Source: an uncultured Acidobacteriota bacterium (GTDB taxonomy: Bacteria; Actinomycetota; Acidimicrobiia; Spongiisociales; ZC4RG35). Taken from it: 64,000 bases of DNA. Both the position numbers and the translations under genes were made by a program. The stretch lies in contig CAVTFV010000008.1 of assembly GCA_963734115.1 (NCBI GenBank), positions 211,581-275,580 on the forward strand, given 5' to 3'. The notes under the pieces are model-generated. The model saw only the letters and a program-made list of their open reading frames with translations, had not been told where the DNA came from and ran no database searches. Numbering within the stretch: position 1 is the stretch's first letter; every line of letters begins with the position of its first letter. Positions 8,060-58,227 of the stretch are shown here, piece by piece.

Positions 8060-8096
8060 GGCGCTCCTTGCCTATTGGGGGAATGCCCAGCGAATG

Positions 8097-22069: not shown

Positions 22070-22084
22070 GGGGCCGGAGATTAT

Positions 22085-24793: not shown

Positions 24794-24807
24794 GGGGCCA
24801 GGCTATT

Positions 24808-24850
24808 CAGCGTGTGCAGATGGACACGCTGTACCTGTTCGTCTGCACAC
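24808..24850. other. two overlapping, mutually exclusive inverted repeats (CAGCGTG...CACGCTG and GTGTGCAGA...TCTGCACAC) between the ppc start and the end of the xdhC pseudogene
   Basis: 7-bp and 9-bp perfect arms share sequence, so only one hairpin can form at a time. The region lies in the ppc 5' leader and the 3' end of the cox accessory operon. Confidence 0.3.
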
Positions 24851-24852
24851 GC

Positions 24853-25929
24853 TTATTCGTCCTCGGGTCGTTGCTTGTGGACCCTTCCCTCGATCCCGTG
24901 GAGCGAGAGACCGGTGCCATGTCCATAGCGAACCATGGTCATCTCGGCCAGGATGGAGACCGCCACCTCCTGCGGGCTCTCGGCGCCGATATCTAGGCCT
25001 ACCGGGCCCCGCACACGGGCTATGTCCTCCTCCGAGAAACCCATCTCATGCAGTCGCCCGACTCTGAGATCCTGCGTTCGACGGCTCCCCATGCATCCGA
25101 TGTAGCGCACCGGGCTCTTCAGACGCGGCCTCCAGCACCGGGTCTTCGTGGGGCGGGGCATGAGACAGGATGACCACCCATGTACGCCGATCGAGATCGA
25201 CTTGGCCGATGACCCTCTCCGGCCACCCGACCAGGACCCGGGCGGTAGGGAAGCGCTCCGGTGTGGCGAAGGCGCCCCGCGAGTCGATCACCGTCACCCG
25301 GTAGCCCATCTGGCCGGCGAAGTTGGCGAGAGCCTGACCGATATGGACCGCGCCCACGATCAGCATCTCCTGGGGCGGGGCGAGCGACTCGATGAACACC
25401 CCATGGGGTGGGTACTCCATGGCACGGTGCTGCTCATGATCCATGAGCACCAGGGCATCCGCCGTCACATCGGCGGCGATCTCCGATGGGAGCTCCCCGG
25501 ACACCTGCTGACCGGTGGAATCGAGAACCACCTTGGACCCCAATGATGGTCCGTCGACGAAGGTGACGACTGACCCGTACTCCTCGCGATCGAGGATGCC
25601 CTGGACCGCCTCGAGCGGCTTCACCAGGGCTCGATGAAGACGTCGATGGTCCCGCCGCAGGCCATGCCTACTTCGAAGGCGTCGTCGTCGGCGATCCCGT
25701 AGGTGACGGTCTTCGGCTTGCCCGACTCGATCACCTCTTGGGCGTGGAGGAAGACATCGTTCTCGACGCACCCGCCACTGACCGACCCTTCCATGTCTCC
25801 GGCATCCGAGACCAGGAACTTGGAGCCCTCGGGCCTGGGGGCGCTGCCCTGGACCCGGATCACCGTTGCGACGGCGACCTTCTTCCCTTCCGATGCCCAT
25901 CGGTTGCGCACTTCGATCTGATTTCTCAT
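24853..25929 (-). pseudogene. XdhC/CoxI-family accessory protein with two compensating frameshifts
   Basis: N-terminal domain (ORF 25621..25929, ...[12 protein letters not shown]). The middle Rossmann part (VKPLEAV...[29 protein letters not shown]) is in another frame. The C-terminal part ([10 protein letters not shown]...[19 protein letters not shown]) returns to the first frame. The first break maps to a C-run (FIEP-L-VKPLE is restored by adding one C). Confidence 0.7.
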
Positions 25930-27038
25930 CGCCTCGCTCCAGCCACTGAATCGAGCACCCGCACCACCCCCCGGAAGTCACTGACGCTAGCGGCGGGCAA
26001 TAGCCGATCGATGCTCGGCATCACCGCCTGCATGCCACGCGTCAGCGGCTGATATGAGGCCCTCGCCGCGAGGGGGTTGAGCCAGATCACCTGATGGACC
26101 GATCGGGCGAGTCGGGCCATTTCCGACGAGAGGACGGCGGGGTCGCCGCAATCCCAGCCGTCGGAGAGAATCATCACGACCGGGCCGCCCCTGGCCAGAC
26201 GACGGCTCCACCGTCGATTCCACTCGGCGAGAGCGTCACCGATCTGGGTCCCCCCCGACCAGTCGGTCACTCGATCGGCGACGCGGGCCAGTGCGGCCTT
26301 GGTGTCCCGACGGCGCATGTCCTCGGTGATGCGGCTGAGATGGGTGGAGAAGGTGAAGATCTCGACTTCACGCAGCCGACGCTGGGCAGCGTGGGCGAAT
26401 ACGAGGAATATGTCGGCGTACTTCTCCATCGACCCGGAGATGTCGGCGATGATGATGAGGGGGCGCTCCTTCCGCCGGCGCTGCTTCCAGCTCATAGTCA
26501 TCATGTCCCCGGTCGGTCCCACCGCGTCCCGCAGGGTGCGGCGCAGGTCGGGCCTGACCCCATCGCCGGGTGTCCATCGCCGGGTCCTGTAGTCGGTGGG
26601 ATGCCACATCATCGTCATCACCAGGCGTCGCGCCTCCTGGAGGTCCTCGTCATCGAGATCGGCGAAATCCCTGGTTGAGATCCTCTCCACCGCCGAGGCG
26701 CCACCCTGGTCGGTGACCGGCGCCACGCTGGACCCGGCCGAGCCCTGGATCGCATAACTCGACGCGTCGGTGCCCGGCTCATCCGGGTGCCGGTCGACCC
26801 ATGATGGCAGGAGGCGCCCGAAGAAGATCTCGAACTCCCGGTCGAACACCGGGATCTGATCGGGGTCGGTGACGGTCAACGAGCGCAGAGCGGCTTCGGC
26901 CTGCGACCGCCGGCTCATGTCGACCATGGAGAGGGCGCGGGCCATGTCGGTGGTCTGGTCGGAGGTGACCGTGAGACCGCGATTACGCAGGGCCGCTGAG
27001 AAGAGACTCAATTGGTCGATCAGCCCGGGCCGGCTCAT
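25926..27038 (-). CDS. coxE: VWA-domain CoxE-like accessory protein
   Basis: DISGSM MIDAS motif, C-terminal VWA. The start ATG overlaps the coxD stop (ATGA). Confidence 0.85.
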
Positions 27039-27913
27039 CCCACCAAGCTGTCGACTCCGGCGGACCGGACCATGTCGATGTCGTCCTTGTACTTGAGCAC
27101 GACGCCGATCGTGCGGTCGATCGTTGCCGGAGACAGCTCGCCCGCCTCCAGCAAACGCAACGACTCTGCCCAATCGAGTGTTTCTGCCACTCCGGGGGGC
27201 TTGAAGAGCTCCATCTCCCTGAGCCTCCTCATCGCCTCGGCCAGAGATACCGCCAGACGCCCCTCGAGATCGGGCACCTTGCGGATGATGATCTCGGCCT
27301 CCTTGGCCGCGGTTGGATAGTCGATCCAGTGATACACACAACGACGTTTGAGGGCGTCGTGTATCTCCCGGGTGCGGTTCGACGTGAGGACGACGATCGG
27401 CCTGCTCAGTGCCTTGATCGTTCCGATCTCGGGAATCGTTATCTGGAAATCGGACAGCAACTCGAGGAGAAAGGCCTCGAACTCCTCGTCCGCCCGGTCC
27501 AACTCGTCGATGAGAAGCACCGGACGGTGCCCCTCGGTGCTGGCCTCGATCGCCTGGAGCAGGGGACGAGCGATCAGGTAGTCCCGACTCATTATGTCGT
27601 CGGGGGTGGCTTCAGCGCCCTGTCCCCTTGCCTCGAGAAGGCGGATCGCCATCATCTGGCGGGCGTAATCCCACTCGTATAGCGCCTGGCCGACGTCCAG
27701 ACCCTCATAGCACTGGAGACGGATGAGCTCGGTCCCGCCCATGGCCGCCAGGACCTTGGCCACCTCGGTCTTGCCAACTCCGGCCTCCCCCTCCAGGAAA
27801 AGCGGTCTCCCCAGTTGAACTGCGAGGTGGATGGCCACTACGAGGCTCTCGTTGGCGAAGTAGTCCTGCTCGTCGAGACGTTTCTCGAGCTCGCCGATCG
27901 TGTCGGGGATCAC
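27035..27913 (-). CDS. coxD: MoxR-family AAA+ ATPase (CoxD-like)
   Basis: Walker A GEAGVGKT, Walker B LLIDELDRAD, and the MoxR C-terminal domain. Confidence 0.9.
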   Translation of the reverse strand: MIPDTIGELEKRLDEQDYFANESLVVAIHLAVQLGRPLFLEGEAGVGKTEVAKVLAAMGGTELIRLQCYEGLDVGQALYEWDYARQMMAIRLLEARGQGAEATPDDIMSRDYLIARPLLQAIEASTEGHRPVLLIDELDRADEEFEAFLLELLSDFQITIPEIGTIKALSRPIVVLTSNRTREIHDALKRRCVYHWIDYPTAAKEAEIIIRKVPDLEGRLAVSLAEAMRRLREMELFKPPGVAETLDWAESLRLLEAGELSPATIDRTIGVVLKYKDDIDMVRSAGVDSLVG

Positions 27914-27948
27914 CGGATGAAGCCTAAACGTCGCCGTACAATCGGTCT

Positions 27949-28872
27949 GTGTACGGGGTGGCGCTCACGGTTCTCGCCTGTCTCCGCTCGGGAACCCGCG
28001 CCGACGTGGCGTGGCTGGTCGAGGCGGAAGGATTGCCCGTGACGGACTGGTCCGATGCAGTCGTGTTCACCCCTGGCGGCGGCCGGATCGGAGGATTGGC
28101 GGGCGGCGCAGTGGATGGGCAGCTGGCCGACGAGGCGGGTCGAAGGGACGTCGGTCGACTGGTCGATATCGAGGTGAGCGAGATCGACGCCTTGATCGCC
28201 GGCCTGTCGTCGGCCGGCTCCGCAAGATGCCTGCTCGTGCCGGCAGACACGCTTCCTCGAGAACTCTGGGACCTGGCGGTCGCACGGGAGCCGATCTGTC
28301 TGATCTGCAATGTCGAAGGCGGCGAAGTGGGAGACGTCAGCGTCTACACGACCGCCACGGCGGCGGGTGGCGGGGAAATCGTCGAGGGTTTGTTCGCTGC
28401 CGGCAAGAGCGGGTCGACAGTCACCGGAGATCAGGTGATCTCTGTGTTTCGGGCAGTGCCTCAGTTGGTCGTGGTGGGGGACACCGACGTCGCCACCGCT
28501 CTGGTCGAGCTGGCATCCCGGATCGGCTGGAACGCCCGCCTGGCGGCCGACTCCGGTTCGGCCACCGGCATGATCGCCACGCTGTCGGGTCAGGACAAGG
28601 TCGTGGTGACCGCGCACGATCTCGAGTTTGCGGGGACTGCGCTCAAGGCTGCCCTGGAGAGCGATGCCGGCTACATCGGGGCGATGGGCGCTCGACGGAT
28701 GCAGGAGAACCGTGCCGACTGGCTCGCCTACCGGGGGGTGACGGATCTCTCTCGAATCCATGGTCCCGCCGGACTCGACATCGGCGCCGAAACACCGGCC
28801 GAGATCGCTGTCTCGATCCTCGCCGAAGCGATCGCAGAGAACGCTGGGAATCATGTCGTTTCCAGCAGCTAG
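27949..28872 (+). CDS. XdhC/CoxI-family molybdoenzyme maturation factor (intact)
   Basis: 307 aa with the C-terminal YIGAMGARRM...GLDIGAETPAEIAVSILAE signature. Divergent from coxD. Confidence 0.85.
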   Translation: MYGVALTVLACLRSGTRADVAWLVEAEGLPVTDWSDAVVFTPGGGRIGGLAGGAVDGQLADEAGRRDVGRLVDIEVSEIDALIAGLSSAGSARCLLVPADTLPRELWDLAVAREPICLICNVEGGEVGDVSVYTTATAAGGGEIVEGLFAAGKSGSTVTGDQVISVFRAVPQLVVVGDTDVATALVELASRIGWNARLAADSGSATGMIATLSGQDKVVVTAHDLEFAGTALKAALESDAGYIGAMGARRMQENRADWLAYRGVTDLSRIHGPAGLDIGAETPAEIAVSILAEAIAENAGNHVVSSS

Positions 28873-28937
28873 CCATGGAGTACACAGGTGACCGTCACTA
28901 CACTCGATGATGGACGAGACCTTCCCGGGAGGACTGG

Positions 28938-29189
28938 ATGACCGCCCAATACGAGACCACGGCAGAGGCCCTGAAGTCGATTTGGATCAGCAGTCACGAC
29001 CACGACCCGCTCGACGAGGACTGCAGCCCCACCAAGGCCTGTCGCAACATGAAAGACGTCACATTCGACGGTTATGCCGAGCCGGGCACTGACCTCGGCG
29101 CCGCCTGGCGGGCCAAGCTGGCGCGGGAGGGAAAGCTGTCCACGTCCGGGGGGAGTGTCCGCGACCTGATCCTCGGTCAGGGCGAATAG
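28938..29189 (+). CDS. hypothetical small protein (83 aa)
   Basis: ATG-initiated ORF between xdhC and the second MoxR gene. I do not recognise a domain. Confidence 0.4.
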   Translation: MTAQYETTAEALKSIWISSHDHDPLDEDCSPTKACRNMKDVTFDGYAEPGTDLGAAWRAKLAREGKLSTSGGSVRDLILGQGE

Positions 29190-29230
29190 CCCTGGGCAAC
29201 GACGACCTCTCACCCACGCGGGATCACGCC

Positions 29231-30121
29231 GTGAGCGCCGATGGGGCATCCACACCGCCTGCGAGCGTCGATGAGGTGATCGCGCGTCTCGGCGAGGGTC
29301 GCTATCTGGCCGACCGCGGCCTGGCCACCGCCGTCTACGTCGCGCTGACACTGGGTCGCCCGCTCCTCCTCGAAGGTGAAGTGGGAGTGGGCAAGACAGA
29401 AGTGGCCAAGGTTCTGGCCACGGTCCTGGGGCGCCGCCTCATCCGTCTCCAGTGCTACGAGGGGATAGACACCAACCAGGCCCTCTACGAGTGGGACTAC
29501 GCCCGACAGATGCTCCAGATCAGGGCGCTGTCGGAACGCGAGCTGGCCGAAGACCATGTCGACAAGCTCTTCGGACCCAAATTCCTGCTCGAGCGTCCGC
29601 TGCTGACCGCGGTCAGGGAAGGTGACCGGGCGGTGCTGCTCATCGACGAGATCGATCGGGCCGACGACGAATTCGAGGCCTTCCTGCTCGAGTTGCTGTC
29701 CGACTATCAAATCACCATCCCGGAGATCGGCACTATCTCTGCCTCAGCCCCCCCGCTTGTCATCCTCACATCCAATCGCACCCGCGAGCTACACGACGCG
29801 TTGAAGCGGCGGTGTCTCTATCACTGGGTCGGATATCCGAGCGCCGAACGCGAAGTGGAGATCGTCCTGGTCCGTGCCCCTGGTGCCAGCGAAACCCTGG
29901 CCCGCAAGGTCGTCGCCGCCGTCGGCCATCTCCGCCAGCTCGATCTGGCAAAGCCACCCGGGGTTGCCGAGACGCTCGACTGGGTCGCCACTTTGAACGT
30001 TCTCGGCTCGGAAGACCTCGATGCCGGGACCGTGGAGGACACCCTCGGTGCCGTGGTCAAGGAGCGCGACGACCTCGAAACGGTCCTCGACCACCTCGAG
30101 GAGCTCGTCGCCGATGGCTGA
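29231..30121 (+). CDS. MoxR-family AAA+ ATPase, second copy
   Basis: Walker A GEVGVGKT, Walker B LLIDEIDRAD. About 60% identical to the first copy by eye. Confidence 0.9.
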   Translation: MSADGASTPPASVDEVIARLGEGRYLADRGLATAVYVALTLGRPLLLEGEVGVGKTEVAKVLATVLGRRLIRLQCYEGIDTNQALYEWDYARQMLQIRALSERELAEDHVDKLFGPKFLLERPLLTAVREGDRAVLLIDEIDRADDEFEAFLLELLSDYQITIPEIGTISASAPPLVILTSNRTRELHDALKRRCLYHWVGYPSAEREVEIVLVRAPGASETLARKVVAAVGHLRQLDLAKPPGVAETLDWVATLNVLGSEDLDAGTVEDTLGAVVKERDDLETVLDHLEELVADG

Positions 30122-31265
30122 ACAGTCGATCGCGGTTGATGACCGGACGTCTTTCATAGGGATGCTGGTCGGCTTCGGGGACGAGCTGCGGGACGCTGGA
30201 GTCCCGGTCGGCTCGGGAGATGTCCTCACCTATTGCGCAGCGATGGCGTTGCTCGACCCGGGCGATGTCCTCGATCTCTACTGGGCCGGCCGAACCTCGC
30301 TGGTGACACGGCGGGATCACATCCCGACATACGACCGTGTGTTCCGTACCTATTTCCTCGACCAACCTGCGAAGCCGAAGGGTCCGGCCCTCGCGATTCT
30401 GAAGCAGTCGCTCATCGAGAACCAATCGGTGATCGAGGTACCCGCCGCCGAGCCGGCACGGCCGGGCAAGGAGGAGGAGGCACGACTCGGGCTGATGGCC
30501 TCCGACATCGAGATCTGGCGGAACAAGGCATTCGCCGCCTGCACCGATGAGGAGCTCGCGGCGTTGCGCCGGATCATGAACCAGGTCAAAGTGATCCCAC
30601 CCCGACGACGCTCCCGACGAACGACCCAGTCTCGGTCCGGGAGCAGACCCGACCTTCGTCGCACCGTCCGCACCACGATGCGCACTCATGGCGAGCCCTC
30701 GGAGTTGTTTTGGCGACAGCGACGGCTTAAGACGCGACCGTTGGTCCTCATCCTCGATGTGTCGGGCTCGATGGCCGATTACTCCCGCAACCTCCTCCAG
30801 TTTGCCTATTCGACCCGGCGGGCTGCCACCAAGGTCGAGGTGTTCTGCTTTGGGACGCGGCTCACTCGCATCACGCGGGCCTTGGAGCGACGTCGCCCTG
30901 ACGATGCTCTGGACCAAGCGGCGAAGTCGGTCTTCGACTGGGAGGGCGGTACCCGGATCGGCGAATCGATCGACACCTTCGTCCGCCAGTGGGGTCGCAG
31001 GGGGATGAGCCGGGGAGCGATCGTCGTCATCTGTTCGGATGGGCTCGATCGTGGTGACCCGGCGGTCCTGGCCGCGGCCATGGAGCGGCTGTCCCGGCTA
31101 TGCCACAAGGTGGTGTGGATGAACCCCCACAAGGGCAATGACCCTGAGTTCAAGCTGACGACGCTGGGGATGATGGTTGCGGAGCCATACATCGACTTGC
31201 TTCTCTCCGGGCACGATCTGGCCAGTCTCGAGGAGCTCGCCGAGCGGCTGCCGGAGTTGAGGTGA
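30114..31265 (+). CDS. VWA-domain CoxE-like protein, second copy
   Basis: I placed the start at the internal ATG (MAEQSIAVDD), overlapping the MoxR stop by 8 nt. DVSGSM MIDAS motif. Confidence 0.85.
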   Translation: MAEQSIAVDDRTSFIGMLVGFGDELRDAGVPVGSGDVLTYCAAMALLDPGDVLDLYWAGRTSLVTRRDHIPTYDRVFRTYFLDQPAKPKGPALAILKQSLIENQSVIEVPAAEPARPGKEEEARLGLMASDIEIWRNKAFAACTDEELAALRRIMNQVKVIPPRRRSRRTTQSRSGSRPDLRRTVRTTMRTHGEPSELFWRQRRLKTRPLVLILDVSGSMADYSRNLLQFAYSTRRAATKVEVFCFGTRLTRITRALERRRPDDALDQAAKSVFDWEGGTRIGESIDTFVRQWGRRGMSRGAIVVICSDGLDRGDPAVLAAAMERLSRLCHKVVWMNPHKGNDPEFKLTTLGMMVAEPYIDLLLSGHDLASLEELAERLPELR

Positions 31266-31269
31266 GCCA

Positions 31270-31563
31270 GTGAGATGGAGTGTCTCCCTCCAGACCGAGG
31301 GTGATCGTGTGATCGAGCTAGACGAGGTGGTCGAGCTCGCTGACGCGGTGGCCGCCAGCGATGGGATCGCTTCGGGGATGGGCACCTATGGATACGGGGT
31401 CCAGGTCGTCGTTGAGGCCGATGACAGTGGTCACGCCGTGGAGCTGGCCATGGCGGTGCTCGCCGGGGCCGTGGAGAAGTCGGGTCTCCCGTCCTGGCCG
31501 GTGGTGACCATGGAGACCATCGCCGAGGACGAAGAGATGTTCTACGACATGGTCGAAGAGTGA
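31270..31563 (+). CDS. hypothetical small acidic protein (97 aa)
   Basis: The ORF lies 4 nt after the VWA gene. No recognisable motif. Confidence 0.45.
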   Translation: MRWSVSLQTEGDRVIELDEVVELADAVAASDGIASGMGTYGYGVQVVVEADDSGHAVELAMAVLAGAVEKSGLPSWPVVTMETIAEDEEMFYDMVEE

Positions 31564-31605
31564 TCCGTCTCGGATCGCTCGCCGGGTATCCCTTCGAGGG
31601 GCCGC

Positions 31606-32034
31606 GTGTTCTCGGGGGTTGGACCGCGCCGGAAGCGCCCGCCGTGTTTCGCGGTCATGTACAAGCCGGACCCGTCCCGTAAGCCCGAGGAGTACGGCGG
31701 TCCTCTACGTCGGGCATTCCGACGATCTCTCGACGCGAACGGCTCCCGTTCAACCACCCCAGCGCCGCATGCTGGCTCGAGCCGGGTGGGTGGGAAGAAG
31801 TTCGACCTCTACATCGGCACCTACGAGGCGCCCGGCGCCAACTCTGCGGCACCGCGAGCAGATCGTCCGAGAGCTGGTCGCGATCTACAAGCCGGGCTGC
31901 AACCCCGATCAGTACGACCAGGCCTGGGAGGATCACTGGATCGGGGATTACCAGACCCCGGGCACCACCGGCCCGCTGACGACTCGACGAGAGCCGCCTG
32001 GGGCCGGTGGCTGAAGATACCGACTAAGGCGTGA
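31606..32034 (+). pseudogene. decayed ORF with coding-like segments alternating between two frames and an internal repeat (AVMYKPDPSRKPEEYGG / VAIYKPGCNPDQYDQAW)
   Basis: ORFs 31606..32034 and 31619..32014 overlap in different frames. Each carries plausible segments (a YVGHSDDLSTR-like segment in one frame) and low-complexity junk in the other. Confidence 0.3.
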
Positions 32035-32876
32035 TCACCAGGGTGTCGAGAACGTCCTGCAACTCGGTCACGTCCTCCTCCGGTGACGATCCGGGCGCCC
32101 AGCTCGCCTCGATCATGACCGGGGTGCCCTCCACATCGAGGAACCAGTATTCGACCATATCGGCTGGGTCGTACCAACGCTCGTGGTCGAAAACGGGGCC
32201 CGTCCAGGCCGGTTTGACGTCACCGCCGCACCCGGCAGGCACCTCTCCGACCAGGTGGTACCCGTTGTGGCCGAAGGCATTGACCGGCGCCAACGCCTCC
32301 CGGACCGTCAATCCATTGGTGGCGATCTGGTTGGCCAGATCGGCCGCCGTCGTCCCCGCCGCCACCGGAGCGGTCGGCTCACATACCGATGACCACACCT
32401 CGTCGACCTCGACGACCAAAAGCGACAACAGAGTGCTCGCCGCCACCACCCTCTTTTAGCGCCCCGGATGAAAACACGTCCGTCCACCCGTCACCTTCGA
32501 TGACGAACGTGCCACGAGTCGCCGTCTCCTCGTTGCCGTCGGTGTCGGCGAAGTAGGCGCCGGGGGCGAGGGGCTGAAACTCGTCCGTCAGTTCAGTGGC
32601 ATTCGGGGCCGGCTCGGCCACCGAGGTGTCGTCCCTGGTCAAGAACAGGACGAGCCCTGCGACCAGGATCACCGCCGCCGCCGCCGCGATCCCGACCAGG
32701 GGGCCCCGCCGGCGATTGCGGTCCGCCTGGACCTCAGTCGGTCTGTCATCGATCTGCATTTCCGTTCTCCTCTCGAGAAGGGTCGTGAGGACGGGCACAT
32801 CCACAGGCTCGAGGGCGTTCAGGTCCGGCAGAGGATTTGCCTTGCGGACCATGCGATCGATCTGATCGTGTGTCAT
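32024..32876 (-). pseudogene. anti-sigma-like membrane protein with extracytoplasmic domain, copy 1 (one frameshift near 32440)
   Basis: MTHDQIDRMVRKANPLPD...TM helix (GPLVGIAAAAAVILVAGLVLFL) in the frame of ORF 32379..33437. The C-terminal domain continues in the frame of ORF 32024..32449. Total length is 3n+1. Confidence 0.6.
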
Positions 32877-33437
32877 GTCGCTCCTTCCTCGGCGACCGGA
32901 GGGGAAGGGATCGGCTTGATGAGGGGCTGGAGAGCCCGAGCGAGTCTCTGGTAGGAACGGTGGATTCTCTGGTCGACCGCGGACCTGGTCATGCCCATGA
33001 TCTCGGCGATGTCGTCCCTGGGCAGATCCTCCCAGGCGTAGAGCATCACGATCTCGCGGTCTCGTCGGGCTCAGGTTCCTAACCGCCGCTGCGACGTCGG
33101 CGTCGTCAGAGCTCTGGACGACGAGGAACGCCGGGTCGACCGGGGGAGCGACACCCAGGTTGCGCAACTTCTCGTCGAGACGTGATCTGCGACGAAAAGA
33201 TCGGGTGTGATTGGAGACCACCTTGCCCGCGATGCCGTAGATGTAGAGGAGGGTCTTGGGCGGCGGTGGAATCTCGTCGATCCGGCGCCATACCACCAGG
33301 AATATCTCGGCACAGACGTCGTCGGCATCGTGTGCTGCGACCCTTCGTATGCAGTAGGCGCGCACCTTCAGCGAGTGCTCGGCCCAAATCGCTTCGAAGC
33401 GAGCCCTCCGCTCCATGTCCACCGTCGTCGTCATCAA
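32873..33437 (-). pseudogene. ECF (sigma-70 family) sigma factor, copy 1 (frameshift between region 2 and region 4 near 33065)
   Basis: Region 2 (FLVVWRRIDEIP...LLYIYGIAG) is in one frame. Region 4 (DREIVMLYAWEDLPRDDIAEIMGMTRSAVDQRIHRSYQRL) is in another. The stop overlaps the anti-sigma ATG (ATGA). Confidence 0.65.
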
Positions 33438-33522
33438 TCAGTTCCTGTCCGGATACGACACCCCGTTGACAGGATTCTGTTCGAATCTCCACCCCTATGC
33501 CTGTAGGCGGGGATACAAATGA

Positions 33523-33552
33523 GGAACGGGTCGGCGTGTGCCGACCCGTTCC
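33523..33552 (-). terminator. perfect 13-bp GC-rich hairpin (GGAACGGGTCGGC-loop-GCCGACCCGTTCC) downstream of copy 2; candidate intrinsic terminator
   Basis: Sits in the roughly 150-bp spacer between copy 1 and copy 2, about 40 nt after the copy-2 stop. On the minus strand it is followed by UCAUUUGUAU. Confidence 0.4.
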
Positions 33553-33590
33553 GTGGATAAATCGATGGTGGCTGCCCGACTAGGGGGTGA

Positions 33591-34427
33591 TCACCAGAGT
33601 GTCGAGCACCGCTTGGAGCTCGGCCACATCCTCTTCCGGGGAGCTGGCGAACGAGGCCGCTTCGACCATGACCGGGGTCCCCTCCACATCGAGGAACCAG
33701 TAATCCACGACCTGACCGGTGCCTGGTAGAAGCGCCCGAATGTGGGTCCTTCCCAGACCGGGACTCTGGTCGCCCAGCGCACCCGGTAGGGATCTCGACC
33801 ACCAGGTGGTAGCCCGTCATGGCCAAAGGCAGTGACCGGTGCCAACGCCTCCCGGATTGTGAATCCAGCGGCGGCGAACTGGTTGGCCAGGGTCCTCCGC
33901 AGTCGATCCCGGCAGCCAGGGGTTCACCACCGCCACACGCCGGCGACCACACCTCGTCGACCTGGACGACCAGGAGCGAGACAAAGTCCTCGCCAAATGC
34001 CTTTCTCGCCCCCGCTGGCATGCGATGACCACCCGCTGTCTTCGATCACGAAAGTGCCTCCGAGCGACGACGCCTCGTCTCCGTCGGTGTCGACGAAGTA
34101 GGCGCCGGGCGCGAGCCCGAATCCATCTCGTCTGGGCTGATCCGGGTCGCATTCGGGGCCGGCTCGGCCACCGGGCGTGTTATCCTTGGTCAGTAAGAAG
34201 ACGAGCCCTGCGATCAGGATCACAGCCGCCGCCGCGATCCCGACCAGGGGGCCACGCCGGCGATTGCGGTCCGCCTGGACCTCAGTCCCGGGTCTGTCAT
34301 CGATTTGCATTTCCGTCCTCCTCTCCAGAGGGGTCGTGAGGACAGGCACATCGACGATCTCGAGCGTGCTCGGGTCCGGGATCGGGTTCACCCGGCGGAC
34401 CATCTCTCGGATCTGGTCGTGCGTCAT
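33591..34427 (-). pseudogene. anti-sigma-like membrane protein, copy 2 (heavily decayed C-terminal domain)
   Basis: MTHDQIREMVRRVNPIPD...TM in the frame of ORF 33924..34988. The C-terminal domain is fragmented across ORFs 33434..34021 and 33591..33845. Confidence 0.55.
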
Positions 34428-34988
34428 GTTCACTCCTTCCTCGGCGATCGGAGGGGAATTCAGTGAACTGATCTCCAGGACGGGCACCAGGGCCCGGGAG
34501 AGCTTTTGATAGGCGCGGTGGATCCGCTGATCGACGGCGGCCCTCGTCATGCCCATCACATCGGCGATCTCTGCCCGGGACAGGCCCTCCCAGACGTCGA
34601 GCATCACGATCTCCCGGTCGACGGGCTTGAGCCGTCGGACCGCGTCCGTCACGACCTTGTCGTCGGCGCGCTGCACGACGACGAGCATCGGGTCGGCGGC
34701 AGGCGCCATCCCGAGGTTGGTGAGCTTGGTGTGGAGACGGCCCCTTCGATAGAAGGCTCGCGATCTGATTCGACAGCGATTTTGCGGGCGATCCCGTAGA
34801 GACAAGGAAGGGTCTTGGGGGCCGGCGGTATCTCGTCGATGCGCCGCCACACGACGAGAAACGTCTCGGCGCAGGCGTCCTCCGCATCGGCCGACGAGGC
34901 GCGCCGCAGGCAATAGGCCAGCACCTGGTGCCGGTGTGCGCGCCAGATCGCCTCGAATCGAGACCTGCTGGTCGGTCTGCGAAGTCAT
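34424..34988 (-). pseudogene. ECF sigma factor, copy 2 (frameshifted; region 4 reads through into the anti-sigma frame)
   Basis: Region 2 is in ORF 34649..34924 (FLVVWRRIDEIPPAPKTL). Region 4 is in ORF 33924..34988 (DREIVMLDVWEGLSRAEIADVMGMTRAAVDQRIHRAY). There is no stop before MTHDQ. Confidence 0.6.
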
Positions 34989-35118
34989 TGCCCCTTAGTG
35001 TCCACCCGTGGTGGATCGCTGACGAGATTCTTGCTCAGATCTCGTGTCATGGGTCGCGGTCACCCGGACACAAACGGGTTGCCGGAACACCGGTCAGGTG
35101 ATCCGGAGGGGAAAGAGA

Positions 35119-35143
35119 TGGGCCGGGTCGGCCCCGGCCCATC
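35119..35143 (-). terminator. perfect 10-bp hairpin (ATGGGCCGGG-TCGGC-CCCGGCCCAT) about 35 nt after the stop of the last small membrane protein; candidate terminator of the cox operon
   Basis: GC-rich stem followed on the minus strand by CUCUUUCCCCUCC. Confidence 0.35.
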
Positions 35144-35176
35144 TCGACTAAGAGCACGGAGAGGATGCGACTCGAC

Positions 35177-35588
35177 CTACGAAGGCTCTGACGTATCGGC
35201 CAGGGGGGCGTGGGCCCTGCTCCCTGGGCCGTCCGGCATGTAGCCGATGGCGTCATGCAGACGTGAGCGGCGACGACCGGATGCGGGTACCGCCGGGCCT
35301 CGCTCCGGCACCGTCTCGGGGTCGTAGGTGGCCCCGACCACGATCTTCTCGGCCATCCCATATAGGAGGGGGAGTGCGGCTGCGACGACGCCTCCCGTGC
35401 GGTTCACGTGCTCGAGATTGCCTTCGATCGAAGCGGCGTTGCCGCCGATCTTCTGCACCAGGTCGTTGCACTCCTCGAGATTGGTGGCGATCCGGGTGAG
35501 CTGCCCCCCGACGATCCATAGATAGATCGCCAGCCCGGCGATGAGCAGGACGATGTCGACGACGGTGAAGATGCACCAGGTTGCTCAT
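35177..35588 (-). CDS. small single-pass membrane protein (DUF948-like architecture), 5th of a tandem array; 1-nt frameshift just after the start
   Basis: ATG at 35588 with AAGGTG 6 nt upstream, overlapping the previous stop (ATGA). Removing one base near 35570 gives MSNLVIFTVVDIVLLIAGLAIYLWIVGGQLTRIATNLEECNDLVQKIGGNAASIEGNLEHVNR, continuous with ORF 35177..35458. Confidence 0.5.
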
Positions 35589-35878
35589 GAGCGCACCTTC
35601 CCCAGCACCCGGCCCAGGAAGAGATGGTGCTCGAGACCCTCTGCGAGGACCAGGTCGACTCCGGCAGCAGTGGTGTTCAGCAGCTCGGCATCAGCGGTGT
35701 TGGCCTCGGCCTGGGTCAGGGTCGCTTTGATGTTCTTGACTCTCTTGTCGATTCTGTGGACGAGGAGCACAAGGATCGTGAGCAAGAGCGCTACGGCGAC
35801 CACGACGGCGAGGCCGGCCCAGTTGGCGATCCGCCACAGCGTCTCCTGATTCTCGGTCAGGGCAAAGATCACGGTCAA
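35585..35878 (-). CDS. small single-pass membrane protein (DUF948-like), 4th of array
   Basis: 97 aa with TM helix WAGLAVVVAVALLLTILVLLV followed by a polar helical region. Confidence 0.55.
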   Translation of the reverse strand: MTVIFALTENQETLWRIANWAGLAVVVAVALLLTILVLLVHRIDKRVKNIKATLTQAEANTADAELLNTTAAGVDLVLAEGLEHHLFLGRVLGKVRS

Positions 35879-36135
35879 CCTCCCAACCTCTGCCGGCCCC
35901 GCTTCAAACCCTCGATCACGTTGATCGCCATGGTGTTGGTGGTTGCCAGGTCGGCCAACGCCGCGGTGTTTCGCACCGACTCCTGGAGGCTTTCGTCGAT
36001 CAGCTGGGCCTCGTTCCCGATCTTGCGGGCCAGGACCAGGATCGGCACCACCAGCGCGACCACGACCAGGACGACGACGATCCCGATGATGTATCCGACC
36101 AGCCAGCCCGTGTTTCCCTCGAATAGTTCGCTCAT
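35875..36135 (-). CDS. small single-pass membrane protein (DUF948-like), 3rd of array
   Basis: 86 aa with TM helix WLVGYIIGIVVVLVVVALVVPILVLA followed by a polar helical region. The start overlaps the upstream stop. Confidence 0.55.
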   Translation of the reverse strand: MSELFEGNTGWLVGYIIGIVVVLVVVALVVPILVLARKIGNEAQLIDESLQESVRNTAALADLATTNTMAINVIEGLKRGRQRLGG

Positions 36136-36359
36136 ATCGATTCGCAGAAGTCGCTGACGGGCTTGAGGTTGGCGTTGACCGAGCCCACCACCGCGGGCAC
36201 CGTGCTGGTCTTGTCGGCCACCACTCCGACGCCGCCGGTGAGGGCCCGGAGCGTCCCGAGAGTGGCGCTGAGGTGGCCGATGACCCGCATCAGGCCGAGG
36301 GCCGCCGCGGCGATGATGAGTGTCGCGATCATCAGGGTCACGATTGCTGCTGCAGGCAT
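36132..36359 (-). CDS. small single-pass membrane protein, 2nd of array
   Basis: 75 aa with TM helix AIVTLMIATLIIAAAALGLM. Confidence 0.5.
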   Translation of the reverse strand: MPAAAIVTLMIATLIIAAAALGLMRVIGHLSATLGTLRALTGGVGVVADKTSTVPAVVGSVNANLKPVSDFCESI

Positions 36360-36374
36360 ATGACTCGTCCTCTC

Positions 36375-36629
36375 CTAACCCAGCAACTTCGCCACGGAGC
36401 CGGCGTAGCGGACTGCGCCGGTGGAAACGTCTTCGATCGCCTTGTCGGTGACCGCCAGCAGCTCAGGCACCCTGTCGACCTCGCCGATCAGGGCGACGCC
36501 ACCGCCGAGGATCTCATCAGAGGCACCCCTGATCCGCTCGAGAGCTGCCAGCACCCGATTGAGAAGTGCGACCAACACCGGCACCACCACCAGCAGCAGC
36601 ACCGCATTTCCGATCCACCACCAAGTCAT
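36375..36629 (-). CDS. small single-pass membrane protein (DUF948-like), 1st of array
   Basis: I placed the start at the internal ATG. MTWWWIGNAVLLLVVVPVLVALL TM helix followed by a polar region. It begins 10 nt after coxG. Confidence 0.55.
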   Translation of the reverse strand: MTWWWIGNAVLLLVVVPVLVALLNRVLAALERIRGASDEILGGGVALIGEVDRVPELLAVTDKAIEDVSTGAVRYAGSVAKLLG

Positions 36630-36639
36630 CAGCGCCTCC

Positions 36640-37221
36640 TCAGATCCGGTCGGGTTGGTAGGGGAGAAAGAACCGGCGCCCGACTCTCTTGAGCGCCATC
36701 CATGCCGCCGCGATGGCGATACCGAAGCCACTGGCGGATTTCGTCTGGATCTGGTCGGGTGAGACACCGCGGTCGTAGGCATCGATCCGCGTCTGCATGT
36801 TCGTGGCGAAGTCCCGCATCATCACCGCGCTCACGTCGCTGATCATGCCCCGCCCGTACTGCGCAGCGGCGCCGGACAACTCCAGGTCCTGCTCCACCTC
36901 CACCCTCGTTCCGTTGGCGGTGGGGACGAGGCGGGCAGTCAGCCCGAGGTTCGCCTGACCCCGGCCCTTGTCGTCGGCGCCCGAGGCGTCGACGACGATG
37001 GTCCTGTTGGCGTGATCGCGCTCCTTTACCGCGGCTTGTCCGGCGAATTGCATCTGGACTGGACCGAGCCGGATGCCGACATTCCCTGCGTATTGATCGG
37101 GGCCGATCTCGTCGGTGAGCGAGGCGCCAGGGAGACAGGCGGCGACCTGGGGGATGTCCTGACAGAACTCCCACACCTTGTCTACGTCGACCGGCACCTC
37201 GAAGTCATGTTTGATCAGCAT
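36640..37221 (-). CDS. coxG: CO dehydrogenase subunit G (SRPBCC family CoxG)
   Basis: 193 aa beginning MLIKHDFEVPVDVDKVWEF, with a C-terminal hydrophobic anchor. Confidence 0.85.
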   Translation of the reverse strand: MLIKHDFEVPVDVDKVWEFCQDIPQVAACLPGASLTDEIGPDQYAGNVGIRLGPVQMQFAGQAAVKERDHANRTIVVDASGADDKGRGQANLGLTARLVPTANGTRVEVEQDLELSGAAAQYGRGMISDVSAVMMRDFATNMQTRIDAYDRGVSPDQIQTKSASGFGIAIAAAWMALKRVGRRFFLPYQPDRI

Positions 37222-37222
37222 C

Positions 37223-38173
37223 TCATCCCCTGACTGTCATGTACGCGGAGGGGTCTTTCTCGAAGGCCGCCCGGCATCCCGGGCAGCAGAAGTAATAGGT
37301 CTGACCCTCGTATTCGAACGGGCGACTGCTCTCATCGGCAGGCACGGTCATGCCGCAAACGAGGTCTACGGCGGTGCCTGCGGCTGCGTGCTCATGGCCA
37401 TGACCGGAATGGTGGTGCTCGATGGGCATCGCGTTCGATTCCGCCAGGGGCGCGGGGTCGAAGGCACCCTTGGCCCGAAGCTCCACCAACTCGGCAAGAA
37501 CGGAGACTGCGATTTCGGGATGTGACGTGTGGCCGAGGTCGAGGCCTACGGGGACCCTCACTTGATCCAAGAGGTCACGGGGGACACCCCGTTCGGCGAG
37601 GTAGCCGAGGACCGCCTCGCCACGCTTGGACGAGGCTACGAGCCCCACGAAGGCCGGGCGCGCGTTCACTGCCTGCTCGACCGCCTCCTCGTCACCGTGA
37701 CCCTGAGTGGCGACCACCACGACCGACCAGCTGCCGACATGAGCGGTCTTGAAGTCGGGTACATCGACCAAGTCAGCGCGCCAGCCGACCCCGGCCGCAA
37801 GCTCCACCAGGGTGGCGGCCATTGGGGATCTGCCCACGACCACCAGGTGGGGGCTGGGAAGTACTGGCTCGACATAGAGCTGCAGCGCGCCCTCGGACTG
37901 GCACGACATCTGGACGAACGTCATGCCTTCGGCAACCTCGCCGAACTGGTCGGGGTCGCCGAGCAAGATCAGACGCGGGACCCGTTCTTCGATGGCGCGC
38001 TGCGCCTCCCGAACGACGACCGGCTCGGCACAGGCCCCGCCGATCCAGCCGTGCATCTGGCCGTCGGCAGTGATGATGGCCCGCGACCCTTGCTGCCCTG
38101 AGGAGGGCGCCTGGCGCCAGACCACGGTGGCCAGGGCGAATTCGACGCCCTGGCGGGCGAGATCGCTGGCCAT
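37223..38173 (-). CDS. XdhC/CoxF-family maturation factor fused to a C-terminal YHS (TRASH-like) metal-binding domain
   Basis: XdhC core (VPVGLDLGHTSHPEIAVSVLAE), a His-rich linker (HHHSGHGHEH), then CGMTV...YEGQTYYFCCPGCRAAFEKDP. The start has GGAGG 9 nt upstream. This gene was artificially joined to coxL in the 1183-aa ORF 37223..40774. Confidence 0.8.
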   Translation of the reverse strand: MASDLARQGVEFALATVVWRQAPSSGQQGSRAIITADGQMHGWIGGACAEPVVVREAQRAIEERVPRLILLGDPDQFGEVAEGMTFVQMSCQSEGALQLYVEPVLPSPHLVVVGRSPMAATLVELAAGVGWRADLVDVPDFKTAHVGSWSVVVVATQGHGDEEAVEQAVNARPAFVGLVASSKRGEAVLGYLAERGVPRDLLDQVRVPVGLDLGHTSHPEIAVSVLAELVELRAKGAFDPAPLAESNAMPIEHHHSGHGHEHAAAGTAVDLVCGMTVPADESSRPFEYEGQTYYFCCPGCRAAFEKDPSAYMTVRG

Positions 38174-38208
38174 CTCGATCATCCTCCACCCATCGGCAGG
38201 CTGGGCAC

Positions 38209-40593
<2,385 letters not shown>

Positions 40594-40597
<4 letters not shown>

Positions 40598-41118
40598 CCT
40601 TGATCCTCCAGCTTCTTTGCCGCCCACATGACCGCCTTGACGATGTTCTGGTAGCCGGTGCAGCGGCAGAGATTGCCGCTCAATGCCCATCGGATCTCGT
40701 CCTCGGTCGGGTTCGGGTTCTCCTCGAGCAGGGCCTTGGAGGCCATCATCATCCCGGGAGTGCAGAACCCGCACTGGAGCCCGTGCTCCTCCTTGAACCC
40801 TTCCTGTATGGCGTGCAGCTCACTGGGACCTGCCAGGCCCTCAACGGTCATCACGTCATGCCCGTCGGCTTGGACGGCGAACATCGTGCAGCTCTTCACC
40901 GGCGTGCCGTCGAAGAGCACGGTGCATGCCCCGCAGTTGGAGGTGTCGCAGCCGGTGTGGGTGCCGGTGAGATGGAATCCCTGACGGAGGAGATGGGCGA
41001 GGACGAGACGGGGCTCGACCACGGCTGTTCGGGTCTCGCCGTTGACCGTGACTGTGATCTGCCTCGTCGGCGTCTCCGCGGCCGCCCCCGGGCTGACCTC
41101 TTGGAACAGGCTGGTCAT
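40594..41118 (-). CDS. coxS: CO dehydrogenase small [2Fe-2S] subunit CoxS
   Basis: 174 aa with both cysteine clusters ([11 protein letters not shown] and [10 protein letters not shown]...CRCTGY). Confidence 0.95.
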
Positions 41119-41119
41119 G

Positions 41120-41995
41120 TCAGGCCGCCTCCTCTTCCGATCGAATCAACCCGGTCAGGATCCTGCTGGTGAAGACGCTGACCAGCTGCTTCTTGTAGGA
41201 GGCGCTGCCTCGATGATCGGTCCGGGGTTGGGCTGCCTGCGCCGCCAGCGAGGCGGCCTCACCGATCACATCGGCTGTGAGCGAACTGCCAACCAGCACC
41301 TGGGCGGCATCATCGGCTGAGATGGTCGAAGGACCCACTCCGGTCAGGCCAATGCCCGCCCTGGTGACCTCACGGCCGTTTCGGTCGACGGAAACGGCGA
41401 CCCCGACCGTGGCGAAATCGCCCACGCGGCGCTCCAACTTCAGATAGCCGCCAGCCGGCTCGCCCTGGGGGGCGGGAGCGATCGCCTCCACCACCACCTC
41501 GTCGTAGGCGAGGTTTGTCTGGAACGGGCCGCGGACGAGCTCCTTGACCGGGATTGTCCGCCGGCCACCTTGACCCTGTGCCACAACCGAGGCATCCAAC
41601 GAGACCATCACCGATGCCCAGTCTCCCTGTGGGTCGGCGTGACACAGGGAACCGACCAGAGTGCCGCGATTTCGCACGATCGGGTCGGCGACGAGTGGCG
41701 CCGCCGCAGCCATGGTGGGCTGATGGCCGGCCAGCAACGAAGAGCGCTCCAGGTCGGCGTGACGGCACAGCGCCCCGACGTGGATCGATCCGTCGGCATC
41801 GATCCGGTGATAGTCCAAACCGGCAATCTCGTTGATGTCGACCAGCATCTCCGGGGAAGCGAACCGGAGCTTGATCATCGGGACCAGGCTCTGGCCTCCG
41901 GCCAGCACCTTGGCATCGCCACCCCCGTCGGCCAGGAGCGCGGAAGCTTCCTCGATCGACCTGGGAGCCTCGTAGCGAAATCGAGAGGGGTAGAT
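41120..41995 (-). CDS. coxM: CO dehydrogenase medium FAD-binding subunit CoxM; probable ATC initiation codon
   Basis: FAD-binding motifs ([28 protein letters not shown]). The N-terminus (I)[20 protein letters not shown] aligns to M-I-P-G-S-F-D-Y... of characterised CoxM, so the ATC at 41995..41993 sits at the initiator position. AAGGAGG lies 5 nt upstream. There is no in-frame ATG/GTG/TTG for 75 codons upstream. Confidence 0.85.
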
Positions 41996-42015
41996 GTCTG
42001 CCTCCTTGGTTTGCT

Positions 42016-56249: not shown

Positions 56250-56876
56250 TCACTGGCCCGGGTAGGCCTCGACGAACCGCTCGGTGTTGATCTGGTAGAG
56301 GTCGAGGATCACCTGGTCCACATCGACCTCGCGGTTGAACATAATCTCGGCGTCCGCTGGATGGTGGGTCCCAACCCATCTGGCGAAGACCTCGAATGAC
56401 TCCGGTATCCACTGGCTGCGGAAGTTCTCGTCCTTGTCGATTACAGCAGTAATGCCCGTGTCGCCGAACTCCATCACGTGCACGCCGACGATCGGCTCCA
56501 GACCCATTGCATCAGACCAGTCATTGCGTGCCGCAACCCTGCACTCGATCCCACCGCCGTCGATCTCGAGGCATTGGTCGAGACTCCACTGCCAGCCGGT
56601 TGCCTCATACCAGTCGAACTGACGTTCAAGTGACCACGCACGACCGAACAAACTCACCTCCTCGGATCCGGCCGCAGCAGGGTCCAGGTACGAGATGGCC
56701 GTCTCCCGATCACCAGCCGACACCGCCATCCAGAAAGCTGTCGCACGATCCAGTGGTGCGGCGACTTGAGGCCCGCGAGTCGCAATCAGCGCGCCGATCC
56801 CGATGGCGATCACCACCGCCGCCACCGCTGCAGCCACCAAAGGCCCCCGGCTCCGATCCGGACGCGATTCGCTCAT
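56250..56876 (-). CDS. hypothetical N-terminally anchored protein; its soluble domain is paralogous to the C-terminal domain of the adjacent anti-sigma-like protein
   Basis: TM helix LVAAAVAAVVIAIGIGALIA. Its ...FEVFARWVGTHHPADAEIMFN...ERFVEAY segment resembles ...FAEFRSWVQGNHPDDESVMYS...IDEFVAEV in the 56873..57685 gene. Confidence 0.5.
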   Translation of the reverse strand: MSESRPDRSRGPLVAAAVAAVVIAIGIGALIATRGPQVAAPLDRATAFWMAVSAGDRETAISYLDPAAAGSEEVSLFGRAWSLERQFDWYEATGWQWSLDQCLEIDGGGIECRVAARNDWSDAMGLEPIVGVHVMEFGDTGITAVIDKDENFRSQWIPESFEVFARWVGTHHPADAEIMFNREVDVDQVILDLYQINTERFVEAYPGQ

Positions 56877-57685
56877 CCGTCTACCTCCGCCACGAACTCA
56901 TCGATGTATTGCTTCCAAAGACCTAAGGACTCGGGCTCGACGGCTGCGTAGTCATTCGCGTACGGGGTCTGCCGGGTATCCGGTGGGGTCGAGTACATGA
57001 CCGATTCGTCGTCAGGGTGGTTCCCCTGCACCCATGACCGAAACTCGGCGAACGACTCATCCATGCTGCTCGATTCGGGCCAGGTCTCGACAGCGCGCAC
57101 GATTTCACCGCCGCTGACGTACACCGTGTATGTCCCTTCAGTGGCCCCGAGCCCGAGAGCCTTCGTCAGGTCGTGCTGAAGTGCCCAGGAGCACTCGACC
57201 GGGGTTGCCTCTCTGCCTGCGTAAGAAATCGGCGGGCGCTCCACGCAATTGACGCCTGTGTACTCGAAGCCCAGTGCCCGATTGAGATCGGTGACTGCCG
57301 GCCATAGGTCGGGGTTCCACATGAGTTCCTGGTCCTCGAGCGCATACATTCCTCGGATTGCCATTCCATCGTGCTCATTGATCGCCGCCATGAACCCATT
57401 CGCCACCTGCTCGGCACGTGTCGGATTCGCGGCCAGCGGCGTCACGTTGATCAAGATCGGGATCGCCACCACGAGGACTGCGATCATGGCCATCGCCGCC
57501 GCAAGCTTGGGCCGGCCCGGCCGGGAAACGGTGGTCTGGATCGTCTTTTCTGTCAGATCACCCCTCGTGACGGATCGAGTCTTGATGGAATCGATGTCCA
57601 CCGGCTCGATCGGATCGAGCAGATCCACCGAGGGCACCGGGTTCGCCCGGGCGAAGAGAGCAGCCGCCTGATCTTCGATGTTCAC
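56873..57685 (-). CDS. anti-sigma-like membrane protein with extracytoplasmic domain (intact paralog of the decayed copies at 32-35 kb)
   Basis: GTG start (VNIEDQAAALFARANPVPSVDLLDPIEP). It overlaps the sigma gene stop (GTGA) and has one TM helix (LAAAMAMIAVLVVAIPILINV). Colinear with MTHDQI..NP.PD..LEPVDVPVLTT of the decayed copies. Confidence 0.65.
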   Translation of the reverse strand: MNIEDQAAALFARANPVPSVDLLDPIEPVDIDSIKTRSVTRGDLTEKTIQTTVSRPGRPKLAAAMAMIAVLVVAIPILINVTPLAANPTRAEQVANGFMAAINEHDGMAIRGMYALEDQELMWNPDLWPAVTDLNRALGFEYTGVNCVERPPISYAGREATPVECSWALQHDLTKALGLGATEGTYTVYVSGGEIVRAVETWPESSSMDESFAEFRSWVQGNHPDDESVMYSTPPDTRQTPYANDYAAVEPESLGLWKQYIDEFVAEVDG

Positions 57686-58227
57686 GATCGACCTCCGTTC
57701 CGAGCAGCGGGGGGTTGACGATCTTCGGTGAGCTTGTGGTACTCGGCGGCCAGGTTGCGCCGAGCGCGATAGGCCCGTTCTTTGACCGCGGTGATGGCGA
57801 TTCCGAGAACGAGGGCGACATCGGCGTGGGTCAGCTCCTCCCACAAGGTGAGACGGAGGATCTCCTGATCGATGGGCCGGAGACGAGCGGCGGCGTCGAG
57901 GACGTCCCGGTATTCCTCGTTTCTGAGCACTACGACGTCGGGTGAAAAGGTGTCGATCTGGGCAAGCCCTTGCAGGCGTTGCAGGAGCCGCCGGCTGCGG
58001 GCCTTGTGCCTCCATTGATGAGAAAGGACCCTGTAGGCGACGGCGTAGAGCCAGGGCAGAGCGGCATCACCGTCCGGAATCTGATCAACTCTTCGCCAGG
58101 CCACGAGGAAGACGTCGGCGACTGCATCGGCAACCTGTGAGCCGGCAGTGCGACGAGCGCAGTACGCCTGTATGGGCTGGGCGTAGCGGCGGTAGATCTC
58201 GACAAATCGCGCTTCGTCGTCGGTCAT
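57682..58227 (-). CDS. ECF-type RNA polymerase sigma factor
   Basis: Region 2 (ADVFLVAWRRVDQIP...PWLYAVAYRV) and region 4 (LTLWEELTHADVALVLGIAITAVKERAYRARRNL). Confidence 0.8.
   Translation of the reverse strand: MTDDEARFVEIYRRYAQPIQAYCARRTAGSQVADAVADVFLVAWRRVDQIPDGDAALPWLYAVAYRVLSHQWRHKARSRRLLQRLQGLAQIDTFSPDVVVLRNEEYRDVLDAAARLRPIDQEILRLTLWEELTHADVALVLGIAITAVKERAYRARRNLAAEYHKLTEDRQPPAARNGGRS

Follow-up and report, generated by a model that had tools for sequence, protein, structure and literature searches.

Does a locus that carries two adjacent copies of a signalling cassette, each broken by frameshifts, record genes in decay or an assembly in error? The question is raised by a 64,000-nt stretch of contig CAVTFV010000008.1 (assembly GCA_963734115.1; hereafter 'the window'), in which two tandem cassettes each encode an extracytoplasmic function (ECF) sigma factor followed by a membrane-spanning, anti-sigma-like partner protein. 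An earlier note on this DNA had interpreted the locus as a duplicated regulatory cassette undergoing pseudogenisation. Our analysis does not support that interpretation: old paralogs, repairable genes, low ratios of nonsynonymous to synonymous substitution rates (dN/dS), spill-over of the breaks into neighbouring genes and intact short-read relatives all speak against it. In our judgement these are quite probably two old, paralogous and most likely functional ECF cassettes, with the 14 frame-disrupting indels representing consensus errors of a long-read (Nanopore-type) metagenome assembly. We favour errors over pseudogenisation because the breaks are almost all unique to the window, can be repaired, spill into unrelated genes and match the signature of a sibling Nanopore assembly, and because short-read relatives are intact.

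The cassettes are direct repeats in head-to-tail order, both on the minus strand: copy 1 (downstream) at 33434..32024 and copy 2 (upstream) at 34988..33580, in a window with a G+C content of ~65% throughout. In a blastn self-comparison, 32020-33330 and 33576-34889 match at 74% identity in an alignment of 1353 nt, with 81 gap positions. In-register repeat families are spaced 1545-1559 nt apart, which puts the repeat period at ~1552 nt (~1.55 kb) and not at the ~1.45 kb previously estimated. As judged by three-frame translation and the open reading frame (ORF) listing, both units hold, in the same order, an ECF sigma gene and a gene that starts MTHDQI... and encodes one hydrophobic helix. The sigma stop overlaps the start of the partner gene (ATGA) in both copies, in copy 2 once the extra A at 34430 is dropped, and the same overlap is present in two aligned relatives, the loci L001 and L002. 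In every related locus the partner gene follows directly downstream of sigma, as expected for co-transcription of a sigma factor with a membrane-bound anti-sigma factor. The two-gene module of ECF sigma and bitopic anti-sigma-like protein described in the earlier note is borne out, as is its tandem arrangement.

How old is the duplication? L001 and L002 are collinear with window positions 22029-44403 at ~86% identity. Copy 1 is 94% identical at the DNA level to the downstream copy of L001, and copy 2 is 85% identical to the upstream copy (regional mean 86%). Within any genome that has both, the upstream and downstream copies share 70-72% DNA identity, and the two window copies share 72%. A scan of species-representative genomes located the upstream/downstream pair in six more assemblies, which makes at least eight related Acidimicrobiia-like assemblies in all (L001, L002, L004, L005, L006, L008, L010 and L015), and single cassettes in more distant relatives. 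The window copies are further from each other than from their orthologs, which argues against a recent tandem duplication. Because each has an ortholog of its own and the divergence between upstream and downstream copies is similar in every genome, the duplication is ancient, with the substitutions between the copies being paralog divergence that is older than these lineages. The divergence had rightly been called real; it is the reading of it as decay that is not supported, since it separates old paralogs with distinct orthologs.

That the duplication itself is an artefact, produced by wrongly expanding a repeat or by fusing two strains into a chimera, strikes us as highly improbable. Tandem repeats are a classic site of misassembly and the two cassettes of L002 are arranged as a mosaic, both of which would fit such an artefact; against it, the pair recurs with copy-specific orthology and the spacer hairpin in at least eight independent assemblies, including L005, a short-read metagenome-assembled genome (MAG), and copies that are only ~72% identical are too different for an assembler to collapse or expand. 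We consider a collapsed or expanded repeat ruled out by the conservation of the pair in the eight other assemblies.

The mosaic of L002 deserves a description of its own. When L002:9444-12391 is aligned with L001:7898-10849, the two anti-sigma-like genes of L002 turn out to have exchanged their outer (sensor) halves in comparison with both L001 and the window: the upstream cassette combines an upstream-type sigma with a downstream-type outer domain (93-97% identical to the downstream copy of L001), the downstream cassette has the reverse arrangement (95-99% identical to the upstream copy of L001), and the two types change over close to the conserved region of the membrane helix. Either the tandem paralogs have really exchanged sequence or the assembly is chimeric here. 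The window has a smaller tract of the same kind: at 34225-34300 in copy 2 (copy 1 counterpart 32677-32750; alignment columns 721-800) the sequence is of the downstream type, 92% identical to the downstream copy of L001 and 71% to its own ortholog, and over 63 nt of it the two copies of the window agree at 98% identity. The pattern suggests gene conversion around the juxtamembrane region.

The frame-breaking bases were identified in an alignment of six units, two each from the window, L001 and L002. Copy 1 has two frameshifts, one per gene, both +1 relative to the orthologs: a C at 33069 in sigma and a T at 32425 in the partner gene. Copy 2 has 12 frame-disrupting indels. Nine are 1-nt insertions, of which four fall in sigma (34967, 34783, 34763 and 34430) and five in the partner gene (34176, 34022, 33906, 33892 and 33812); the partner gene also has two extra bases at 33773 and lacks one base near 34100 and four near 33718. 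At 34430, the additional A joins the sigma frame to the anti-sigma frame. Alignment with orthologs thus confirms one frameshift in each gene of copy 1, several in copy 2 and the read-through of its sigma into the anti-sigma frame, all of which had been noted before. An ancestral frameshift shared by both anti-sigma copies at the same place was ruled out, as the ortholog alignment resolves it into two different inserted bases, each unique to the window (32425 and 34022).

Almost all of the frame-breaking differences are bases that only the window has, and deleting these window-unique columns restores a full-length sigma and a full-length partner in both copies, free of stops and matching the orthologs residue for residue. 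The copy 1 sigma is 96% identical at the protein level to the downstream sigma of L001, and the repaired copy 2 sigma is 93.5% identical to the intact upstream sigma of L001. More than 200 proteins of ~280 aa match the repaired copy 1 partner (283 aa) over its full length (100% coverage); identity reaches 88-89% in the best of them, and those with a named source are from Acidimicrobiia. The repaired copy 2 partner (277 aa) aligns with the intact protein P0047 (279 aa) at 86% identity and 100% coverage, with no stop codons.

If the breaks were real, they would amount to a very recent pseudogenisation, in which the lineage inactivated both cassettes along with two small flanking genes through many small insertions. 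The frameshifts are indeed in the public record: the two halves of the copy 1 partner, P0083 (165 aa) and P0122 (134 aa), are on one NCBI/ENA contig of 456,119 nt exactly as in the window, and because they are deposited as separate, split gene calls, the copy 1 anti-sigma frameshift must be present in the deposited record. The breaks are also concentrated in a single 3.9-kb tract with long neighbouring genes intact, and most of the insertions do not extend a homopolymer. Selection tells otherwise. Twelve neutral indels are normally accompanied by tens of neutral substitutions and some nonsense codons, given the usual excess of substitutions over indels in bacterial pseudogenes. Neither is seen here, and the ~460 repaired codons include no nonsense codon. 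After repair, dN/dS is 0.087 for the copy 2 sigma (dN 0.021), 0.136 for the copy 1 sigma, 0.34 for the copy 2 partner and 0.44 for the copy 1 partner, as compared to 0.36-0.44 for the partner between intact paralogs and 0.04-0.17 for eleven neighbouring genes. As deposited, the reading frames are disrupted relative to intact orthologs; the accompaniments of relaxed selection, namely dN/dS near 1, stops and excess divergence, are lacking, and the repaired cassette genes are under purifying selection. Bacterial pseudogenes are deletion-biased, and the spectrum here consists nearly purely of +1 insertions. Given, in addition, that housekeeping genes of the sibling assembly L002 are broken with this signature too and that short-read relatives are intact, we regard recent pseudogenisation as unlikely.

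The indels are not confined to the cassettes. When polarised by a three-way alignment of the window, L001 and L002, the window-specific indels of a length other than a multiple of three comprise 24 insertions (21 of them single-base) and 3 deletions; the insertions at 44087 and 42516 could not be polarised, L001 being absent there. Twenty events, almost all single-base insertions, fall within 31646..35574 (3.9 kb), 14 of them in the cassettes. This patch affects six genes, the four cassette genes and two unrelated flanking ones (Table 1). The other ~16.5 kb compared have just one gene-breaking event, a window-unique single-base insertion at 25124 (-) in an XdhC-like gene, and long genes outside the patch are intact, among them those for a 1124-aa molybdenum hydroxylase and a 690-aa phosphoenolpyruvate carboxylase. 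Ten suspicious overlapping ORFs in the window were inspected by Pfam domain coverage, and 9/10 have complete domains. Third-position GC is only ~0.8, and a frameshift filter for the whole window based on it is too crude. The 20 small insertions could conceivably be real, a localised burst of +1 events (for example an error-prone repair tract) that very recently disabled six adjacent genes at once and would have left no trace of relaxed selection; we consider this very unlikely.

Consensus error, the explanation that we prefer, would tie the patch to the technology with which such assemblies were made. L002 has 61 insertions (57 single-base) against 10 deletions, and its insertions are patchy and split housekeeping genes (xanthine-dehydrogenase-family, VWA and AAA) that are intact in the window and in L001. 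Such a bias in the indels of each assembly is a technical signature, not a biological one. L001 is contig_24478 of MFD00962.bin.2.52, and other relatives with contig_N names also carry MFD names. Since this naming matches the Microflora Danica assemblies, which are Nanopore-only and were produced with metaFlye and one round of Medaka (PMC12313526), we take L001 and the contig_N relatives to be of the Nanopore type. Frameshifted cassette genes number 12/34 in Nanopore-type (contig_N or MFD) loci when the window is included and 8/30 when it is excluded, compared with 0/16 in short-read (k141-type) loci (Fisher p = 0.005 with and 0.037 without the window). Furthermore, the multi-allelic position at which the copy 1 sigma of the window is frameshifted carries a +1 of independent origin in L015, another MFD assembly, whereas eight other loci are in frame there.

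This recurrence, together with the in-frame sigma-anti-sigma fusion that the A at 34430 creates, could be taken as a hint of functional recoding, that is, of programmed ribosomal frameshifting or of copy 2 being a deliberate fusion. We find this barely credible: conservation is lacking at every frameshift site, the ATGA overlap and open frames are retained in all other relatives, a 1.4-kb unit with twelve shifts cannot be decoded, and no slippery motif recurs at the frameshift sites.

Several observations nonetheless weigh against our reading of functional cassettes with consensus errors. For the contig of the window itself, a Nanopore origin is only probable, judging by its relatives and by the signature of the errors. 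Outside the patch the quality of the window is good, and the 85-fold local excess of errors therefore requires a cause. Only ~5/19 insertions extend a homopolymer, unlike the textbook Nanopore error. The insertions show no significant tendency to lie close to polymorphic columns when compared with random positions (9/14 versus 7.8 expected, p = 0.35), and on this ground we do not claim a consensus of mixed strains as the origin of the patch. As for function, the partner scores above the cutoff of no anti-sigma family model and has no recognisable anti-sigma domain of the zf-HC2/ZAS, RskA, RsdA or CnrY type: no Pfam family at all matches it, and NF052375 ('antisigma') gives 18.1 bits against a cutoff of 100. 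It is gene context and topology that point to the partner being an anti-sigma factor.

Table 1. Coordinates of the cassette genes, their regulatory regions and related features in the window
Feature	Coordinates	Strand	Remarks
Copy 2 (upstream) ECF sigma gene	34424..34988	-	ATG at 34988; repaired stop overlaps anti-sigma ATG; four +1 insertions as deposited
Copy 2 anti-sigma-like gene	33580..34427	-	MTHDQIREMV..., one transmembrane helix, PsbP/Mog1-like outer domain; 8 frame-disrupting indels as deposited
Copy 1 (downstream) ECF sigma gene	32873..33434	-	Single +1 C insertion at 33069
Copy 1 anti-sigma-like gene	32024..32876	-	Single +1 T insertion at 32425; deposited as P0083 + P0122
Upstream region of copy 2 sigma	34998..35043	-	Putative promoter GAGATCTGAGCAAGAATCTCGTCAGCG...GGACAC; conserved in relatives
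Upstream region of copy 1 sigma	33441..33489	-	Putative ECF-type promoter GAGATTCGAACAGAATC...CGTATCC; near-invariant in orthologous loci
Intrinsic-terminator-like hairpin between cassettes	33523..33552	-	13-bp perfect stem, ACAC loop, then TCATTTGTAT; T-rich tail
Flanking hypothetical gene (149 aa in L001)	31560..32011	+	Five +1 insertions: 31646, 31697, 31736, 31778, 31846
Flanking hypothetical gene (136 aa in L001)	35177..35588	-	+1 at 35574 (codon ~5) splits gene from ATG; marks patch edge
Distant paralogous ECF sigma of third pair, intact, 192 aa	57682..58260 (start 58260/58227)	-	34% identity to copy 1 sigma
Anti-sigma-like partner of third pair	56873..57685	-	GTG start overlaps sigma stop (GTGA)
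Stand-alone membrane protein	56250..56876	-	Start overlaps third anti-sigma stop; 26% identity over 200 aa to third anti-sigma outer domain, E = 3e-8

What, then, do the repaired cassettes encode? The copy 1 sigma (186 aa) consists of regions 2 and 4 only, as is typical of the ECF sigma-70 family: it matches TIGR02937 with 60.9 bits (cutoff 42.9) and Sigma70_r4_2 with 50.4 bits (cutoff 25.7), and Sigma70_r2 with 21.6 bits, slightly below the cutoff of 24. The closest relatives of the cassette sigma among PDB sequences, CnrH, SigH, SigL, SigW and SigE, are all ECF sigmas. It falls into no named ECF subgroup (SigE, BldN, SigM and others), the best NCBIfam subgroup model being TIGR02983 with 67 bits against a cutoff of 141.55 and all the others likewise staying below their cutoffs.

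The partner is made up of an N-terminus of ~60 residues, a single membrane helix and an outer domain of the PsbP/Mog1-like (MTC28/LpqN-like) kind. In the AlphaFold2 model the hydrophobic stretch GPLVGIAAAAAVILVAGLVLFL forms a helix at residues 65-83 and residues 95-282 fold confidently into a domain, with only one short, low-confidence helix in the N-terminus. The model is consistent with a cytoplasmic N-terminus that the transmembrane helix would divide from the outer domain. A profile search of the PDB with the partner returned nothing at E <= 1. The family of the partner is uncharacterised; the regulator is otherwise of an ordinary kind. By this architecture, the cytoplasmic N-terminus of the partner would sequester sigma and keep it inactive, the outer domain would sense an envelope or ligand cue upon which sigma is released, and the released sigma would transcribe its own cassette as well as target promoters.

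The upstream regions of both sigma genes are more conserved than the coding sequence, and each holds GAGAATC followed after ~15 nt by CGT(A/C), a pattern compatible with ECF-type autoregulated promoters. A sigma-70 promoter scan of the locus gave zero matches; ECF promoters are expected to escape such a scan. The perfect 13-bp hairpin that had been noted between the units is there, and it folds far better than shuffled sequence (folding energy z = -4.8); its stem is kept in all eight of the assemblies listed above, with a variable loop. Neither the promoter-like regions nor the hairpin is damaged in the window, and both are conserved. An Rfam search over 31-36 kb returned one chance-level match only. 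A further intergenic element, CCCCTCCGGATCACCTGACCGGTGTTCCGGCAACCCGTTTGTGTCCG, lies at 35065-35111 (-), upstream of the copy 2 sigma by ~100 nt; its conservation extends to the distant single-cassette relatives L012, L013, L014 and L016, and it matches no Rfam family.

The window holds a third sigma/anti-sigma-like pair (Table 1). The earlier note had listed it, at 56873..58227, as an intact homologous pair: it exists and is intact, but it is only distantly related to the cassettes, as the similarity of the anti-sigmas (24% identity) covers just the N-terminal ~125 residues, their outer domains being unrelated. The proposed paralogy of its anti-sigma C-terminal domain to the neighbouring stand-alone membrane protein holds. 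Additionally, the ORF at 62723-63502 (+) is sigma-like: its stretch 63317-63448 resembles region 4 and matches the cassette sigma with 44% identity across 45 aa. Counting this ORF besides the cassette and third-pair sigmas, the window has at least four sigma-70-family genes.

The cassettes are located inside a conserved cluster (window 22000-31300 and 35600-42200) of genes for molybdenum hydroxylases (FAD-binding, 2Fe-2S and large subunits) and CoxG, with two AAA/VWA (CoxD/CoxE-like) pairs and several XdhC-like maturation genes, and this synteny is common to L001 and L002. A regulatory link between the sigmas and the molybdenum-hydroxylase cluster is possible. Elsewhere in the window, a pirin-like gene at 7037-8060 (-) has its N-terminal ~60 residues in frame without an ATG, GTG or TTG after the preceding stop, so that the listed ORF begins at position 37 of the Pfam Pirin profile; this could be due to a non-canonical start or a base error. 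As to the organism, the MFD assemblies L003, L004, L006, L008, L010, L015 and L016 are labelled 'uncultured Acidobacteriota bacterium', and yet every one of the closest named relatives, for the loci as for the proteins, belongs to Acidimicrobiia (Actinomycetota); as an organism label this looks either mistaken or generic.

Annotation of long-read metagenome bins calls for caution, since 'pseudogenes' rich in frameshifts may reflect errors in a stretch of the consensus. A three-way comparison with relatives can reveal such errors without reads, through the spectrum of the indels, the dN/dS of the repaired genes and the extension of the breaks into neighbours. The biology that remains is a conserved tandem pair of ECF sigmas, each with a membrane partner that belongs to no family, set in a molybdenum-hydroxylase (xanthine/CO-dehydrogenase-family) cluster of soil Acidimicrobiia-like bacteria. 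Were the breaks true, the lineage would be discarding two envelope-signalling modules at once by an unusual mutational process.

Among known cases, the window resembles the Nanopore-only metagenome assemblies of Microflora Danica (metaFlye and one Medaka round) in its assembly-specific indel bias and its patchy single-base insertions, with short-read MAGs free of equivalent breaks. Its syntenic relatives carry contig_N naming and MFD isolate names, from which its own provenance is deduced. It differs from the residual errors of those MAGs in that its errors are unusually concentrated in one 3.9-kb patch and lie mostly outside homopolymers. The cassettes themselves resemble the pairs of an ECF (group 4) sigma with a co-transcribed single-pass membrane anti-sigma, such as SigD-RsdA, SigK-RskA and SigE-RseA of M. 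tuberculosis and CnrH-CnrY of C. metallidurans, in the two-region sigma, the translationally coupled partner and the layout of the partner (a short cytoplasmic N-terminus, one transmembrane helix and an outer domain); the conserved region upstream of the cassette sigma is likewise consistent with autoregulation. Unlike in these systems, the partner here belongs to no known anti-sigma family and has no HxxxCxxC zinc motif, and the sigma is below every NCBIfam subgroup cutoff. Finally, the outer domain of the partner recalls the PsbP/Mog1-like secreted and lipoprotein domains of Actinobacteria (MTC28/Rv0040c, PDB 4pws; LpqN, 6e5d; a Jonesia protein, 3lyd), with only 9-11% sequence identity; whereas those domains are free-standing, the one described here is attached to a membrane helix and linked with a sigma factor.

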